Of a stretch of DNA of 40,965 bases, positions 434 through 15,259 are shown piece by piece. The stretch lies in the UHGV virus genome UHGV-1351066. One strand, 5' to 3'. The notes under the pieces were generated by a model that saw only the letters and a list, made by a program, of their open reading frames with translations, did not search any database and was not told the origin of the DNA. Position 1 is the stretch's first letter. Every line of letters begins with the position of its first letter. The DNA comes from a virus. Position numbers and translations under genes: made by a program.

Positions 434-468
434 ACCGCGTTGTCGGCGGTGCAGATTGATAAAGAGCG
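434..468 (-). promoter_or_regulatory. nutR: boxA-like CGCTCTTTA plus boxB hairpin ACCGCCGACAACGCGGT
   Basis: Read on minus strand between cro stop and cII start; boxB has a GACAA loop like P22 boxB; followed by an imperfect hairpin (~385-420) that could be tR1. Confidence 0.6.
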
Positions 469-478
469 GATCCGCTTA

Positions 479-811: not shown

Positions 812-1465
812 ATGAAATGGTATGAACTGGCTAGATCCAGAATGAAAGAACTCGGCATAACTCAAGAGAAGTTAGCTGAAGAGCTTGGTATGACGCAGGG
901 TGGAATTGGTCACTGGTTGCGCGGATCTCGTCATCCATCTCTTGACGAGATTGGTGTGGTGTTTAAATACCTTGGTATTGATAACGTCTCATTCAACCAC
1001 GACGGTACATTTTCACCTGTTGGCGAATACTCATCTGCCCCCGTTAAAAAACAATATGAGTACCCTGTTTTTTCTCATGTTCAGGCCGGGATGTTCTCGC
1101 CTGAGCTTAGAACCTTTACCAAAGGCGATGCGGAGAGATGGGTCAGCACAACCAAAAAAGCCAGTGATTGTGCGTTTTGGCTTGAAGTTGAAGGTAATTC
1201 CATGACCGCACCAACAGGATCCAAGCCAAGCTTTCCTGACGGGATGTTAATTCTCGTTGACCCTGAGCAGGCTGTTGAGCCAGGTGATTTCTGCATAGCC
1301 AGACTTGGTGGTGACGAGTTTACCTTCAAGAAACTGATCAGGGATAGCGGTCAGGTGTTCCTACAACCACTAAACCCGCAATATCCAATGATCCCATGCA
1401 ATGATAGCTGTTCCGTAGTAGGGAAAGTTATCGCCAGCCAGTGGCCTGAAGAGACATTTAGTTAA
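812..1465 (+). CDS. cI: CI-type repressor with LexA-like S24 autopeptidase domain
   Basis: HTH '[20 protein letters not shown]'; C-terminal 'GNSMTAP' and 'FKKL' catalytic Ser/Lys motifs; C-terminal half similar to P22 C2. Start at second ATG (812) chosen for AAGGA spacing. Confidence 0.85.
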
Positions 1466-1495
1466 CAGCCTCACCACTCTAAAACACACAACAAT

Positions 1496-1526
1496 AACCC
1501 GACCTTAGCGTCGGGTTTTCTTTTTC
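1496..1526 (+). terminator. rho-independent terminator downstream of cI
   Basis: CCCGAC-cttagc-GTCGGG hairpin followed by TTTTCTTTTT. Confidence 0.6.
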
Positions 1527-1590
1527 CAAAATATAAATCAATAAAATACAAAGTGTTATAAAAAACTAACCGCATTTAGAACATTTTGTA

Positions 1591-1619
1591 TTGACTCAAT
1601 AAAGTACACATCGTACTAT
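1591..1619 (+). promoter_or_regulatory. pL-like promoter with overlapping operator
   Basis: TTGACT-17 bp-TACTAT; the -10 overlaps the near-palindrome AGTACacatcGTACT (1603-1617), the same motif as in oR. Confidence 0.55.
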
Positions 1620-1665
1620 TTAGCCATCAGCAGGAAGCTGGAAGCCAAACGGAACAGATTGGCAG

Positions 1666-1699
1666 GCTCTTTAACTTCGATGGGGCGCTGACAAAGCGC
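1666..1699 (+). promoter_or_regulatory. nutL: boxA-like GCTCTTTAAC plus boxB GCGCTGACAAAGCGC
   Basis: Perfect 5-bp stem with GACAA loop, matching the P22 nutL boxB as I recall it; located between pL and N. Confidence 0.7.
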
Positions 1700-1818
1700 A
1701 AACAGATACCAAACGAGATGGGTTTGGCGGTGATGTGAATTGCAGCTGCAACGACAGCAACCAGAAGATCAGCACCTGGCGCATCACCACCAAAGCCATT
1801 TCACATGAGGAAAACATC

Positions 1819-2127
1819 ATGACGGTAATCGTGTACGGAAAATCAACATTTGCAGGAAATGCCAAAACTCGCCGTCATGAGCGGCGCAGAAAGCTGGCTA
1901 TCGAGCGTGATTCCATCTGCAACATCATCGATTCGATCTTCGGCACAGACAGTGAGGAAGCTGTTCAGGAAGAACCGAGAAAGCGTTTAAGTCTTTCTGA
2001 AAAAGCAATATCACTCGGCATCATCAGTAAATCAAATACAGATGCGAATGGCGGAAGCGTTTGTTTGCCTGAAGTTGCACTGTATGCTGCTGGTTACAGG
2101 TCAATGAAATCAATTACGGCGAGATAG
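1819..2127 (+). CDS. N: N-type antiterminator (P22 gp24-like)
   Basis: Contains 'GNAKTRRHERRRKLAIER', the P22 N arginine-rich boxB-binding motif; internal ATG with GAGGA RBS. Confidence 0.85.
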   Translation: MTVIVYGKSTFAGNAKTRRHERRRKLAIERDSICNIIDSIFGTDSEEAVQEEPRKRLSLSEKAISLGIISKSNTDANGGSVCLPEVALYAAGYRSMKSITAR

Positions 2128-2129
2128 AA

Positions 2130-2396
2130 ATGACTAGCAAACAAGTATCATATAAATGCTATTGCCCTTTATGTGGAAGAAAATTCAGCGCCAAGGCAGC
2201 ATGGAAGCATATCAATGATTATCATCCAAAAGCATCAGAACGTGAGTTGATGATGATAAGAGATGTAAAACGAGAAAAAATTTCTTTCGCAACAAAGCCA
2301 CTAAACGCCAACAAAAACGCAATATTGTATCAAATGCATCGTTCAAGTGGTCCAGATTATTCTGGAGGGCTTCCATCTCTTGGAAAGAAAAAATAA
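2130..2396 (+). CDS. hypothetical small Cys/His (zinc-ribbon-like) protein
   Basis: 88 aa; 'CYCPLCGRKF…H…H' pattern; no family recognised. Confidence 0.45.
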   Translation: MTSKQVSYKCYCPLCGRKFSAKAAWKHINDYHPKASERELMMIRDVKREKISFATKPLNANKNAILYQMHRSSGPDYSGGLPSLGKKK

Positions 2397-2532
2397 CCAC
2401 GCTCACGCTGGTTTTTAATGACATAAATAACCGTATTTACTACCGCAAGCCACGCAGTGAAATGGGTGTGACTTGTGTTGGTCGCCAGAAAATGAAATTA
2501 GGCAGCAAACCACTTATTTGAGAGGAATTAAT

Positions 2533-3156
2533 ATGTCATCAATCCGCTTAACTACGAGAATGAAAGAGGAAATCGCTCGTAACGCTTTAATTAAGTCTGG
2601 GGTTTTCACTGAACTTGAAGAAGTAACAAAGTTAAAGAACCAGCTTGCACTTGACGCCAGAGTTATTGCGTTTGGCGGTAAAAAGAAAACTGAGGAAGTG
2701 GATCAGTTATCATCCAAGTTAGTAGCTATAAGTGAAGAACTTGAAAAACTGGGATGTTCATTTTACTCATACGATGTTCGTTCTACATCAATTTATCTGA
2801 CTGTATCTGGCAGAAGAGTTGGCTGGCATTCATACGGAAAAGACGGCAACGGTGAAGATATATTGCTCCCCACCCCAGAAAAAGATAAATGCATGTTTGA
2901 CGCAGAACACGAAATAACAAAAAGGTTTGATGAAATCTGCGCATTGCAACAAAAACTTGAAGCCAAGAAAAAGGATATCAAATCAAATGTATGGGCTGCT
3001 TTGAACTCAGTCACAACAGTTAAGCGACTTATTGAAGTTTGGCCTGAAAGCAAAGAGTTGCTACCAAAAGAAGCAGATAAAGCAAGTACAGCACTTCCTG
3101 CTTTACGGGTAGAAGATTTGAATAAGATGATTGGACTTCCTTCCGAGGCCGCATAG
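2533..3156 (+). CDS. hypothetical protein, early-left accessory gene
   Basis: 207 aa from ATG at 2533 (GAGGAA RBS); no recognisable motifs; followed by a terminator. Confidence 0.5.
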   Translation: MSSIRLTTRMKEEIARNALIKSGVFTELEEVTKLKNQLALDARVIAFGGKKKTEEVDQLSSKLVAISEELEKLGCSFYSYDVRSTSIYLTVSGRRVGWHSYGKDGNGEDILLPTPEKDKCMFDAEHEITKRFDEICALQQKLEAKKKDIKSNVWAALNSVTTVKRLIEVWPESKELLPKEADKASTALPALRVEDLNKMIGLPSEAA

Positions 3157-3171
3157 TCGGCCTTTATTTTT
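3146..3171 (+). terminator. rho-independent terminator
   Basis: AGGCCG-catagt-CGGCCT hairpin then TTTATTTT; overlaps the stop codon of the 207-aa gene. Confidence 0.55.
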
Positions 3172-3290
3172 AGCATAAACAACAGAATAAACACTGCACT
3201 GTGTATTCATTCCAACGAGTGAATACACGGAGCAATGTCGCTCGTAACTAAACAGGAGCCGACTTGTTCTGATTATTGGAAATCTTCTTT

Positions 3291-3316
3291 GCCCTCCAAT
3301 GTGAGGGCTTTTTTAT
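3291..3316 (+). terminator. rho-independent terminator
   Basis: GCCCTC-caatgt-GAGGGC followed by TTTTTT; preceded by a 9-bp perfect inverted repeat GTGTATTCA…TGAATACAC (~3200-3227). Confidence 0.6.
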
Positions 3317-3398
3317 ATGCATACCAATAACGCTTCACGAGAGGTGTTTATTCATGAGCGTAAACGCTGATTAATGAACGCAGTTGATAGGATATAAA

Positions 3399-3911
3399 AT
3401 GGCATTTATAAAGATTCTTGAATTAATTTCCCTAAGTGAGATTAATAATGTTGTCAAATATAACCCTATTTCTGGTGAGTTCACATGGCTAAAATCTTAT
3501 GGAGCAAGGAAGATAGGTGGAACTGCCGGAACAATAACAACAAGCGGCTACTTAAGGATTTTCATTAACGGAAGACACTATGCTGCACATAGACTTGCAT
3601 GGATTATCACTTTCGGTGTTGAGCCTGAAGGTATTATCGACCATATAAATGGCATTAAGACAGATAACAGAATTTGCAATCTGAGGCTTGCAACTTACTC
3701 ACAGAATTCAATGAATAGTAAAATAAACACCCTCAACAAATCAGGTTGCAAAGGAGTCACATGGAAGAAGGAAAGTAGAAAGTGGGCTGCCTATGGGAAA
3801 TTAAACGGAAAGAAAAAACATCTAGGGTACTTTAATGAATTAGAAGATGCCAAAAAAGCTTACTGCGACTTTGCCAGAAAGCATCACGGCGAATTCTACA
3901 GGAGCAAATAA
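3399..3911 (+). CDS. HNH homing endonuclease with AP2-like DNA-binding domain
   Basis: 'IDHINGIKTDNRICNLRLAT' HNH motif and 'GVTWKKESRKWAAYG…KHLGYF' AP2-like segment; start at ATG 3399. Confidence 0.8.
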   Translation: MAFIKILELISLSEINNVVKYNPISGEFTWLKSYGARKIGGTAGTITTSGYLRIFINGRHYAAHRLAWIITFGVEPEGIIDHINGIKTDNRICNLRLATYSQNSMNSKINTLNKSGCKGVTWKKESRKWAAYGKLNGKKKHLGYFNELEDAKKAYCDFARKHHGEFYRSK

Positions 3912-4029
3912 TGAATGAATATATTTTAGCGGGTAGCGGCGTCATGTCCGCTTTCTACCCGCACGAATCTGAATTATCACGCCGAGTTAAACAATTAATC
4001 AGTGCAGCAAAGAAACAACTGGAGGCGTT

Positions 4030-4182
4030 ATGCGCAATGAAATAGCCATCAATCACCAGATGCTTCGTGCAGCACAAAACAAAGCAGTAATAGCCAGATT
4101 TATTGGTGATTCAAAAATGTGGCTTGAAGCAAATAAAGCGATGAAATCAGCTATCAATCTTCCGTGGTATCGCAGGAAATGA
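4030..4182 (+). CDS. small hypothetical protein (50 aa)
   Basis: ORF with GGAGG upstream; below the ORF-track size cutoff; function unknown. Confidence 0.3.
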   Translation: MRNEIAINHQMLRAAQNKAVIARFIGDSKMWLEANKAMKSAINLPWYRRK

Positions 4183-4263
4183 GTTTTACAGATAACTGGT
4201 CAGACGAAGAGTTCATTCGTCAGATGAACAAAATGCTCAATCAGCACAAAGAACAGGAGAAAG

Positions 4264-4575
4264 ATGATGATTCTGACTCTGAATGATAAGCGTGAAATAT
4301 CGCAAATAATCGCAAGTTTTACTGATGAAGATTACGAACGAATCAACAGTGAAGTTGATCGCCTCTGCAAACGTTGCGACCCAATAAGCGAAATGCTTCG
4401 CTCATATAAACCAGATGAACACACTAAGGACGCTATCGACTGGCTGGAAGATGATGACTGTAACTATCAGGAAAAAGCCGCTGAATGGTTCTGGGATGCA
4501 ATAACCGAAAGAGTTAAGGCTGAATATGCCTTCGCAATATTCAAACGCAGACACATTTTTGGAGAAGCAGCATGA
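4264..4575 (+). CDS. hypothetical protein (103 aa), acidic
   Basis: GGAGA RBS; stop overlaps recT start. Confidence 0.5.
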   Translation: MMILTLNDKREISQIIASFTDEDYERINSEVDRLCKRCDPISEMLRSYKPDEHTKDAIDWLEDDDCNYQEKAAEWFWDAITERVKAEYAFAIFKRRHIFGEAA

Positions 4576-5483
4576 GCAATATCGTTGAATTCGTTAAACA
4601 GCAAGAGCAGTTATTCTGCGGAGCATTGACTGAACAGACGGTGACATGGGCTAAGGAAAGCCAGTTTGCAATTCAGTATTTCCAGAAAAATGATTACCTG
4701 GCTAAAACGGCACTGGCAAATCCAACCAGCGCACAGAACGCCATCATCAATGTTGCGGCGATCGGCATCACCTTAAACCCGGCCAGCAAACTTGCTTATC
4801 TAGTTCCGCGCGACGGCATGGTTTGCCTTGATATCAGTTATATGGGATTGCTCCATATTGCAATGGAGTCTGGTGTTATCTCATGGGGTCAGGCAAAACT
4901 TGTTCATGCTAACGATACCTATGAGTCAAACGGGCTTGATAAAGCACCAACCCATAAATACAACGCCTTCGGTGATCGTGGTGATATCGTTGGCGTTTAC
5001 TGCACAGTTAAGACGCCAGCAGGTGATTATCTAACGGAAGAGATGAGTCTGGCTGAAATTGAGGCTGTAAGGAAAACAAGCAAGGCGGCATTCAGCGATA
5101 AAGGACCATGGGTAAATCACTGGAATGAGATGGCGCGAAAGACGGTCGTAAAGCGTGCAAGCAAGTATTGGCCTAAGGCATCACGTCTTGATAGTGCTAT
5201 TCACGTACTAAACGAAGAAGAAGGTGTGTGGACTGAACCAGTTATGCCGCACAAATCAGAGGAAGATATCCGCGAAGATGAACGGAAACGCCAGCAGGAA
5301 ATAACGGATAAAGCACAACTTCTTTGTGATGAAATGGCTCATGCTGAAAACATGGATGATTTGAAGCGATATTTTGCAGAAGCATATCGCCTGACATCTG
5401 GAATGAAATTGCAGCAGAACGTACAAGCCATTTACGCAGAATGCAAAGCGAAACTGGAGGTTGCCAGTGAGCAAACTGTATGA
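4572..5483 (+). CDS. recT: RecT-family single-strand annealing recombinase
   Basis: 'GPWVNHWNEMARKTVVKRASKYWP' matches the conserved RecT core (E. coli RecT 'GPWVTHWEEMAKKTAIRRLFKYLP'). Confidence 0.8.
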   Translation: MSNIVEFVKQQEQLFCGALTEQTVTWAKESQFAIQYFQKNDYLAKTALANPTSAQNAIINVAAIGITLNPASKLAYLVPRDGMVCLDISYMGLLHIAMESGVISWGQAKLVHANDTYESNGLDKAPTHKYNAFGDRGDIVGVYCTVKTPAGDYLTEEMSLAEIEAVRKTSKAAFSDKGPWVNHWNEMARKTVVKRASKYWPKASRLDSAIHVLNEEEGVWTEPVMPHKSEEDIREDERKRQQEITDKAQLLCDEMAHAENMDDLKRYFAEAYRLTSGMKLQQNVQAIYAECKAKLEVASEQTV

Positions 5484-5949
5484 AATTGCCAATGAGTACG
5501 CAAAATTGATGGATTCAGATTTAGAACCAGAGATGATTGCTGACACAATAGAAGGCATGGAAGGAGAATTTACCGATAAAATAGAGCAACTTCTTTCCGT
5601 CATTAAAAATGAATCTGGTTATGCCGAACGCCTCAAGGAAGAGGCAAAGTCACTGAATGAGCGAGCCGCAGTAATTCAAAATAAGATTGACAGCATTATG
5701 GCGTATATAGCGTCATCGCTTGAAATGGTTGGCAAGAAAAAGATTCGAGCAGGTATTCACCAGGTAACAATCCGCAAACCGTCAGAAACTGTAGAAATCA
5801 TCGACTCAAGCGCCCTTCCTCCTGAATACGTTGAGTTTGAAACGACAATTAAAGCCGACAAACTGGCAATCAAACACCAACTAAAAGCAGGAATAAATAT
5901 CCCCGGCGCTCAACTCAAAGTTGGGAAACCTTCACTTCTTATCAAATAA
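5467..5949 (+). CDS. Gp157-like protein (Sipho_Gp157 family), RecT partner
   Basis: About 160 aa with 'SKLYEI…' N-terminus typical of the family, directly downstream of recT; GTG start inferred from GGAGG spacing. Confidence 0.5.
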   Translation: MSKLYEIANEYAKLMDSDLEPEMIADTIEGMEGEFTDKIEQLLSVIKNESGYAERLKEEAKSLNERAAVIQNKIDSIMAYIASSLEMVGKKKIRAGIHQVTIRKPSETVEIIDSSALPPEYVEFETTIKADKLAIKHQLKAGINIPGAQLKVGKPSLLIK

Positions 5950-14974: not shown

Positions 14975-15037
14975 GTCGTTAATTCCTATGCGTGGTTTTA
15001 CGATACCGAAGCCCTGACTGTTACCGCAGTTGGGGCT

Positions 15038-15259
15038 TCACTGTTTTTGTAAGTCACTGTAGTTATAAAGCCACTGACCACTCATTCTTGCTTTGATTGA
15101 CTCTACTGAATCACGGCAAGGAATGATTCCACCTGACATCATTCTGATCTCCGTAAATTCACCGCTCCTTATCGACTCAATGCCATTAACGTTAACTAAA
15201 GATTTACCTCTACCAAGTGTATTCTCATAGCCAATCTCATCAACCTCAATAAACCTCAT
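15038..15259 (-). CDS. hypothetical protein inserted between arc and ant
   Basis: 73 aa; ATG overlaps the arc stop (ATGA); AGAGGGG RBS inside arc 3' end; no recognised family. Confidence 0.5.
   Translation of the reverse strand: MRFIEVDEIGYENTLGRGKSLVNVNGIESIRSGEFTEIRMMSGGIIPCRDSVESIKARMSGQWLYNYSDLQKQ

Follow-up and report, generated by a model that had tools for sequence, protein, structure and literature searches.

A rare zinc-finger gene linked to N and an Nmad5 family gene meet at a module junction in a P22-like lambdoid phage genome

Two genes and a module junction downstream of N

We analyzed the early-left region of UHGV virus genome UHGV-1351066, a stretch of 40,965 nucleotides referred to here as the window, and focused on two plus-strand genes at positions 2130 to 3156. 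An earlier sequence-only reading had placed two open reading frames (ORFs) here, and both were found in the sequence: ORF88 (2130..2396, ATG start, 88 aa) and ORF207 (2533..3156, 207 aa from an internal ATG at 2533 within a 227-aa ORF at 2473..3156). Full-length matches to phage protein families (phrog_20899, 2e-64, for ORF88; PF18757 and phrog_1965 for ORF207) identify each as a genuine gene rather than a chance ORF. Their early-left location 3' of N was likewise correctly recognized, with N lying at 1819..2127 on the plus strand (PF25694, 6.5e-37; phrog_271) and carrying an arginine-rich motif and a P22-type C-terminal tail (CLPEVALYAAGYRSMKSITAR), and with the ORF88 start codon only 2 nt 3' of the N stop codon. 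The leftward early transcript runs in the order pL, nutL, N, ORF88, a dead N 3' end, Nmad5, terminator-hairpin-terminator, HNH, cIII, kil, and recT. The statement that neither protein matches a family fails for ORF207, a full-length Nmad5 protein (PF18757) that RefSeq names as such. ORF207 is a new, plain member of a known family, and ORF88 is a rare N-linked zinc-finger gene.

The 137-nt gap between ORF88 and ORF207 holds the relic of an N gene and not a leader. Alignment and translation against live N proteins identified a lambda/21-type N 3' end at 2429..2521 on the plus strand (NRIYYRKPRSEMGVTCVGRQKMKLGSKPLI, followed by a stop codon), the last bases of which, including the stop codon, overlap the ribosome-binding site of ORF207 (GAGAGG, 2520-2525). 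The translation of 2441-2521 (YRKPRSEMGVTCVGRQKMKLGSKPLI, followed by the stop) is the C-terminus of a live N in E. coli 8GC and 2014C-3061, in which N stops about 12 nt 5' of Nmad5. In an alignment of six loci, identity begins at about 2429-2441 whatever precedes it, be it N alone, N with a Nun-like gene (mEp235), Ral, or N with ORF88, and the Nmad5 module adjoins many different N alleles and slot genes (Nun-like, Ral, or none). Two independent mosaic modules meet at 2429-2521, and ORF88 and ORF207 are not one cassette; the relic records the recombination that joined a P22-type N plus ORF88 cassette to the Nmad5 module. The proposal of a single moron-like insertion closed off by terminators therefore does not stand, since ORF88 goes with N and the terminators go with the Nmad5 module. 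A related exchange is visible in E. coli 2014C-3061 (locus L006, 2752-3093), where a hybrid N has about 67 first residues nearly identical to the window N and a lambda/21-type C-terminus, indicating that recombination inside N exchanges the C-terminal tail.

Both terminators that had been predicted to close off the pair are present as terminator-like sites, although their strength is moderate rather than strong (each about -11 kcal/mol). The first, at 3145..3172 on the plus strand (scan coordinates 3145-3164; about -11 kcal/mol, z score -2.4), overlaps the Nmad5 stop codon, and the second lies at 3291..3314 on the same strand (scan coordinates 3291-3308; -11.1 kcal/mol, z score -3.3); the terminator scan of 1400-4200 returned 5 sites compared to 2.4 +/- 1.5 in shuffled sequences. 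The 9-bp perfect inverted repeat described between them (GTGTATTCA / TGAATACAC) exists and is the core of a longer plus-strand hairpin at 3191..3238 with 20 pairs, 14 of them contiguous, and no U tract (folding free energy -24.9 kcal/mol, z score -5.7). This hairpin is invariant in 5 prophages, and the whole block of terminator, hairpin, and terminator (3140-3340) is almost invariant in the five, after which they diverge into the HNH gene or cIII. Its non-coding part (3157-3340), which a 31-aa ORF (3235-3330) overlaps, is conserved no less than the Nmad5 coding sequence. Because this near-invariant 3' block is independent of the upstream genes, the terminators and the inverted repeat are part of a widespread Nmad5 module, in which the gene keeps its ribosome-binding-site region and this 200-nt block. 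The block is not a known RNA family, as Rfam returned nothing in 1400-3500 even at E <= 1; the 3191-3238 hairpin may serve as a cleavage site for RNase III or belong to a small RNA.

We also asked how far the two genes resemble a moron. The promoter scan found no promoter-like site on the plus strand from 1620 to 3400, and ORF88 has no strong terminator of its own, being followed only by a weak plus-strand hairpin with a U run (2395..2413; -6 kcal/mol, z score -1.7), a possible weak terminator for the N-ORF88 cassette. At the equivalent site, 3' of its Nun-like gene, mEp235 carries a better GC hairpin and T run. Only the low GC content of ORF88 fits a moron, and the missing promoter argues that the N-adjacent pair is not a classical one.

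ORF88 and its relatives

ORF88 is a basic protein (isoelectric point 9.9) encoded at 37% GC, compared to 46% for the window. The Cys/His character ascribed to it earlier is borne out by a Cys2-His2 motif at residues 12-32 (CPLCGRKFSAKAAWKHINDYH; C12-x2-C15-x11-H27-x4-H32), all four ligands of which (C12, C15, H27, and H32) are conserved across the family. The protein has weak similarity to zf-Di19, zf-C2H2_4, zf-C2H2, and multi-finger eukaryotic proteins, with all Pfam zinc-finger matches falling below the gathering threshold (zf-Di19, the best, 19.6 bits against 27.5; zf-C2H2 14.1 against 25.2). Its AlphaFold2 model, of low confidence (predicted local distance difference test, pLDDT, just 51.7), places strands at 9-11 and 18-20 and a helix at 21-31. 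The finger is followed by an IRDxKR helix and then by an invariant C-terminal motif, GGLPSLGKK[KR]; searching for the GGLPSLGKKR tail in other phage proteins gave chance-level matches only. PHROGs lists the family as 'unknown function'. We compared ORF88 (2130-2396) to the allele at 4001-4267 of locus L017, which shares 75% protein and 64% DNA identity, and obtained proportions of nonsynonymous and synonymous differences (pN and pS) of 0.21 and 0.91, respectively, with synonymous sites saturated. This pattern marks ORF88 as a gene under strong purifying selection. The pS value exceeds the saturation expectation of 0.75, and codon usage or base composition may thus have shifted between the lineages.

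ORF88 is rare. It occurs in 14 of the 5426 E. coli genomes and in one or two phage isolates, and it has 7 clusters in a 5.8-billion-protein set. A profile search of 1.84 billion representatives returned about 20 relatives, most of them proteins of about 80 aa from Enterobacterales, and a further search extended this to 34 clusters; the protein P0080 had no match in viral contigs. Common to all relatives are the finger and the following helix, A[ST][DE]xxLxxIRDARR, and the family divides by C-terminus. Branch (i), which includes ORF88, ends in an invariant GG[LI]PSLGKK[KR], while the C-terminus of branch (ii) is a P22-type N tail, LPxVAxYxAGYRxxxxxTAR or a variant thereof. The two branches are homologous over residues 8-54, the zinc-finger module of ORF88 (hhalign, 99.5% probability, E = 9e-23). 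The branch (ii) tail matches the P22-type N tail both in hhalign (92.9%, E = 3.6e-7) and in BLASTP (12/21 identities, E = 5e-5), and two branch (ii) members have precomputed N_peptide (PF25694) matches.

Branch (i) genes keep company with N. Only 2 nt separate the gene from the N upstream of it in the window, E. coli SMN013SH2, Klebsiella phage phiKp_30, L017-L020, and L022 (by locus: window, L001, L003, L017-L020, and L022), and in L023-L025 the distance to an N-like gene is 34 nt; this post-N position is kept in four divergent lineages. The N proteins encoded upstream differ strongly in their arginine-rich motifs and have P22-type tails. The genes 3' of branch (i) vary between Nmad5, Ral, SieB, and unknowns, indicating that the link of an ORF88-type gene is to N and not to whatever lies 3' of it. 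Since Ral or SieB follow the N-ORF88 pair in other phages, ORF88 is no substitute for either. The absence of clear Ral or Kil homology anticipated by the sequence-only reading held, with PF11058 and PF06301 giving nothing at E <= 1, and neither ORF is a characterized housekeeping protein.

Branch (ii) genes occupy the position of N itself. In Proteus, Yersinia-like, Sodalis, and Pantoea prophages (L010, Proteus L011-L014, L026, Sodalis L027, and Pantoea L028-29), a branch (ii) gene is the first gene after the repressor and leader, and the gap between repressor and branch (ii) gene contains no other N ORF at any of these loci. In L010 and L011 we found two short elements that occur once in the pL leader and once 3' of cro, their order being the same in both places. 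The leading element, a 5-bp hairpin (GAA-CGGCA-CAGUAUAU-UGUCG-GGC) whose loop is NNGUAUAU, is 95% paired across four copies, and in two of these one pair is changed on both sides; the second, about 35-45 nt 3' of the hairpin, is an invariant GGCAAAACCCA. The copies lie at 3860-3887 and 3926-3949 (plus strand) and at 2560-2587 and 2509-2532 (minus strand) in L011, and at 1769-1784 (plus strand) and 459-474 (minus strand) in L010. The two-part element has the layout of a nutL/nutR pair and looks like a new type of nut site, with modest covariation support from the four copies.

ORF207, the Nmad5 family, and the surrounding early region

The match of ORF207 to PF18757 reaches 242.2 bits (cut-off 27; E = 7e-72) and covers residues 4-203 on profile positions 1-206 of 206, and its match to phrog_1965 is at 2.3e-83. 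RefSeq labels near-identical copies 'Nmad5 family putative nucleotide modification protein'. Megablast detected the gene in prophages of 2255 of the 5426 complete E. coli genomes (~42%), and it is carried by many Stx (Shiga toxin)-converting, HK-type, and mEp-type phages. Homologues with 41-81% identity occur in prophages of Cronobacter, Klebsiella, Enterobacter, Pantoea, Erwinia, Providencia, and Serratia, and all 71 of the 71 homologues retrieved contain PF18757; remoter ones are found in Dhillonvirus, Yuavirus, Schitoviridae, and Vibrio and Edwardsiella phages. A C-terminal block, SVxTxKRLIExWPExxELxP ... LNxxIGLP, is kept in ORF207 and in distant phage homologues, and T162, L166, W170, P171, E172, L196, N197, G201, and P203 are invariant in comparison to the Dhillonvirus, Yuavirus, and Vibrio phage proteins. 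The label 'Smchd1' on a homologue in phage APC_JM3.2 was set aside as a coiled-coil artifact.

The remote homology search and structure prediction proposed for both proteins succeeded for ORF207, identifying it as Nmad5 and yielding a confident AlphaFold2 model (pLDDT 85.9), but left ORF88 with a poor one. The ORF207 model has three helices within residues 8-72, then a beta-hairpin (86-100) and a long helix (127-158), and it closes at the C-terminus with a small helical part. Its matches in the BFVD structure database are other Nmad5 proteins, and it has no solved structural relative and matched no enzyme fold; a sequence search of solved structures gave nothing significant for ORF207 or ORF88, and NCBIfam and PADLOC gave zero matches for both. 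The invariant residues of Nmad5 appear structural, being mostly glycines, prolines, and hydrophobics with few charged positions, and the alignment contains no invariant residue set that looks catalytic.

The Nmad5 name derives from gene neighborhood alone. In Pseudomonas phage YuA, the homologue gp15 is flanked by a putative kinase and a dUMP (deoxyuridine monophosphate) hydroxymethyltransferase, and in Salmonella phage TR2 the homologue adjoins a thymidylate synthase dependent on FAD (flavin adenine dinucleotide). The Dhillonvirus nmad5 stands alone, on the reverse strand, within the head module. Around the Nmad5 gene of the window (N, ORF88, HNH, cIII, Kil, and RecT) there are no base-modification or nucleotide-metabolism genes, and in the lambdoid loci examined Nmad5 follows N without partner modification genes. 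No biochemical activity is reported for any Nmad5 member in the papers we found, and a literature search on Nmad1-4 turned up only unrelated papers. The sole experimental data we found come from a study of escape from the Tmn defense system, in which a K-to-E substitution in Dhillonvirus Nmad5 allowed escape, deletion of nmad5 did not, and the gene was not clonable and apparently toxic (PMC11846954). Because deletion does not lead to escape, Nmad5 is not simply a Tmn trigger or inhibitor. The lysine at K216 of the 254-aa BF9 protein (the second K of TDKKLIKAWPE; the paper's phage numbering may differ) aligns with the near-invariant K164/R165 of ORF207. Within this functionally unsolved family ORF207 is an ordinary member, and as an early gene it is conserved in very many enterobacterial prophages. 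In a Proteus mirabilis prophage (L013, 5773-6393), Nmad5 lies two genes 3' of the zinc-finger gene in the N position, so Nmad5 holds its early-left place even beside an alternative type of N.

The window is a P22-like lambdoid phage genome, as indicated by a sar antisense RNA (RF00262, 77.7 bits, 14976-15042), which marks the P22-type immI region, and by mosaic similarity to Lederbergvirus and other lambdoid phages. The ORF list places cII (73-369) and cro (about 479-690) on the minus strand, followed by a LexA-like repressor gene on the plus strand (806-1465; Peptidase_S24 and helix-turn-helix domains). Directly 3' of the repressor gene, a terminator-like hairpin at 1496-1517 is scored on both strands, with a good T run on the plus-strand copy only, and 3' of it an AT-rich inverted repeat (1545-1592) overlaps the -35 region of a pL-like sigma-70 promoter. 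This promoter (1591..1619, plus strand; TTGACT-17-TACTAT in the promoter scan) is the sole promoter-like site on the plus strand from the repressor gene to 4200, and the N-ORF88-Nmad5 transcript is therefore presumed to start from it; an operator-like repeat shared with the pR side includes the -10 region. The plus-strand sequence downstream contains nutL, with a boxA-like GGCTCTTTAAC at 1665-1675 and a boxB hairpin, GCGCTGACAAAGCGC, at 1685-1699 that folds with a 5-bp stem; judging by its boxB, we take this nutL (1665-1699) to be of the P22 type. Between nutL and the N start codon, a hairpin at 1715-1802 is formed by a 21-nt inverted repeat with 86% complementarity and resembles the structure in the lambda N leader that is sensitive to RNase III.

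Downstream of the second terminator, and before cIII, sits a homing-endonuclease-like HNH + AP2 gene (3399-3911; HNH_3 1.7e-15, AP2 29 bits and sub-threshold). In related prophages the non-coding block leads directly to cIII, indicating that the HNH gene is an insertion, present in some prophages and absent from others, whose left junction lies near 3340. The genes that follow are cIII (3911-4045), Kil (4030-4182), RecT (4572-5483), and Gp157 (5461-5949).

Proposed roles and comparison with known systems

The explanation we consider best, which we hold at about even confidence, is that ORF88 acts on the N/nut elongation complex and that Nmad5 is a non-catalytic early protein. In this scheme ORF88 would be made together with N by translational coupling, its zinc-finger/IRDxKR module would recruit it to nascent RNA or to the N-modified elongation complex, and its invariant GGLPSLGKK tail would act on a conserved host partner. 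The outcome might be an accessory tuning of N antitermination or a Nun-like interference with competitors. We read the finger module as a putative device for joining nut RNA or the elongation complex because in branch (ii) it stands in the place of the arginine-rich and NusA-binding parts of N. Taken by itself, a role for ORF88 in transcription elongation, suggested by sequence comparison, is a serious candidate that falls somewhat short of probable. Slightly more tentative is the wider proposal that N/Nun-like transcription-elongation factors include an undescribed zinc-finger class of which ORF88 is the N-coupled member. Under that proposal the sister branch would have fully replaced arginine-rich N, with a new nut made of the 5-bp hairpin, its NNGUAUAU loop, and then GGCAAAACCCA, and ORF88, which stands beside a classical N, would be a cofactor or a Nun-like weapon against phages using the zinc-finger system.

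For Nmad5, we consider it roughly an even call that the protein has no catalytic role and works early as a largely helical binder of DNA, of a nucleotide-metabolism enzyme, or of a host factor; the helical-hairpin model and the mostly structural invariant residues favor a non-enzymatic role. As the first good terminators of the pL transcript lie 3' of Nmad5, N, ORF88, and Nmad5 may all be expressed before N acts.

Several points weigh against these proposals. The mechanism suggested for ORF88 draws on its relatives and position. Its own tail is unlike that of N, with hhalign giving 0.1% for branch (i) against N proteins, a result that also rules out a truncated N tail. The nut-like motifs of the branch (ii) loci are absent from the window, and in Kosakonia (L015) an ORF88-type tail occurs in an apparently degraded region with no N upstream. 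The zinc-finger Pfam scores are sub-threshold and the ORF88 model is poor (pLDDT 51.7). BLASTP of ORF88 against the Nun-like protein of mEp235 found no similarity (E = 4.3), which rules out a Nun homologue and leaves the genomic slot alone as the shared feature. Rho-dependent terminators upstream of Nmad5 are beyond the reach of the terminator scan. Lastly, a real nucleotide-modification role for Nmad5 would fit the neighbors of its homologues in YuA and a Schitoviridae phage (thymidylate-synthase-family and kinase genes).

We weighed three other explanations. In the first, which we regard as unlikely, ORF88 and ORF207 are moron-like cargo acting against restriction or defense, or in exclusion, with no link to transcription control. 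The slot is the place of ral and sieB in related phages, ORF88 is rare and low in GC, and in Dhillonvirus an nmad5 point mutation, in the lysine that aligns with the near-invariant K164/R165 (K216, BF9 numbering), permits escape from Tmn while the gene is toxic when cloned (PMC11846954). However, the genes do not make up a single cassette, the conserved Nmad5 module is core rather than cargo, no promoter of their own was found, PADLOC defense models match neither protein, deletion of the Dhillonvirus gene brings no Tmn escape, and ORF88 co-occurs with Ral and SieB instead of replacing them. For ORF88, what was observed leads to the N/transcription-elongation system rather than to anti-restriction or exclusion.

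The second, which we consider distinctly improbable, holds that Nmad5 is an enzyme, or a specificity or scaffold subunit, of a base-modification pathway acting early on phage or host nucleic acid. It accords with the Pfam and RefSeq names, with the place of YuA gp15 between a putative kinase and a dUMP hydroxymethyltransferase, and with the FAD-dependent thymidylate synthase beside the TR2 copy. Yet the names come from gene neighborhood alone, the partner genes are absent from the window and the other lambdoid loci examined, the Dhillonvirus homologue is a lone gene in a head module, and the family offers neither catalytic-looking invariant residues nor, in its helical model, a match to an enzyme fold. 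The third, that ORF88 is a decaying leftover of recombination, is very hard to sustain: a clear gene relic does adjoin it and the database copies P0003, P0004, and P0007 are frameshifted or fused, but pN far below pS contradicts decay, the Cys/His ligands and C-terminal motif are invariant among members only about 40% identical, and the post-N position is kept in four lineages.

Within the Nmad5 family, ORF207 is structurally indistinct, and its context alone sets it apart, as a lone post-N gene with no modification enzymes nearby. Its value is mostly corrective, in that the label was taken from the neighborhood in unrelated phages and yet sits on a gene found in prophages of ~42% of complete E. 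coli genomes, Stx phages among them. With a confident but unmatched fold and Tmn as its only experimental link, Nmad5 is a common and cheap target for functional work.

With Ral, SieB, and Kil, ORF88 shares a neighborhood and early expression driven by pL, but it has no homology to them, and Kil and cIII are separate genes in the window. HK022 Nun and mEp235 offer a closer parallel in layout, as the same slot in mEp235 holds N, a small basic protein, the same N relic, and Nmad5, and both the Nun-like protein and ORF88 are small and basic with a dibasic C-terminus. Nun, however, binds boxB through an arginine-rich motif, whereas ORF88 has a C2H2 finger and shows neither that motif nor the C-terminal His/KKW region of Nun. 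To our knowledge, all described N and Nun proteins recognize RNA through an arginine-rich motif, and no paper linking a C2H2 finger to N, Nun, or nut sites was found in the searchable literature. Compared to classical C2H2 fingers, ORF88 shares the pattern C-x2-C-x11-H-x4-H and a conserved Phe between the ligands, and its low-confidence model places two strands and a helix in beta-beta-alpha order; it differs in being a single finger within an 88-aa phage protein and in a spacer one residue below the canonical 12.

N-dependent antitermination is among the best-studied gene switches, and the C-terminal part of lambda N is its RNA-polymerase-binding region. Compared to the N of lambda and P22, ORF88 has neither an arginine-rich motif nor a PF25694 match, carrying a zinc finger instead, and its tail (GGLPSLGKKK) is unrelated to N tails. 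It is the second gene after pL/nutL, following N rather than replacing it, and is co-transcribed and apparently translationally coupled with N, while its sister branch has a P22-type tail and occupies the N position. ORF88 may thus be a kind of transcription-control factor undescribed so far. The strongest lead, zinc-finger analogues of N with their own nut-like sites, lies in the related loci and not in the window. If this lead is right, a C2H2 finger joined to an N tail, in the place of N and served by paired elements of its own, would solve the antitermination problem in a second way, and ORF88 would be a natural case of a zinc-finger module working beside a classical N.

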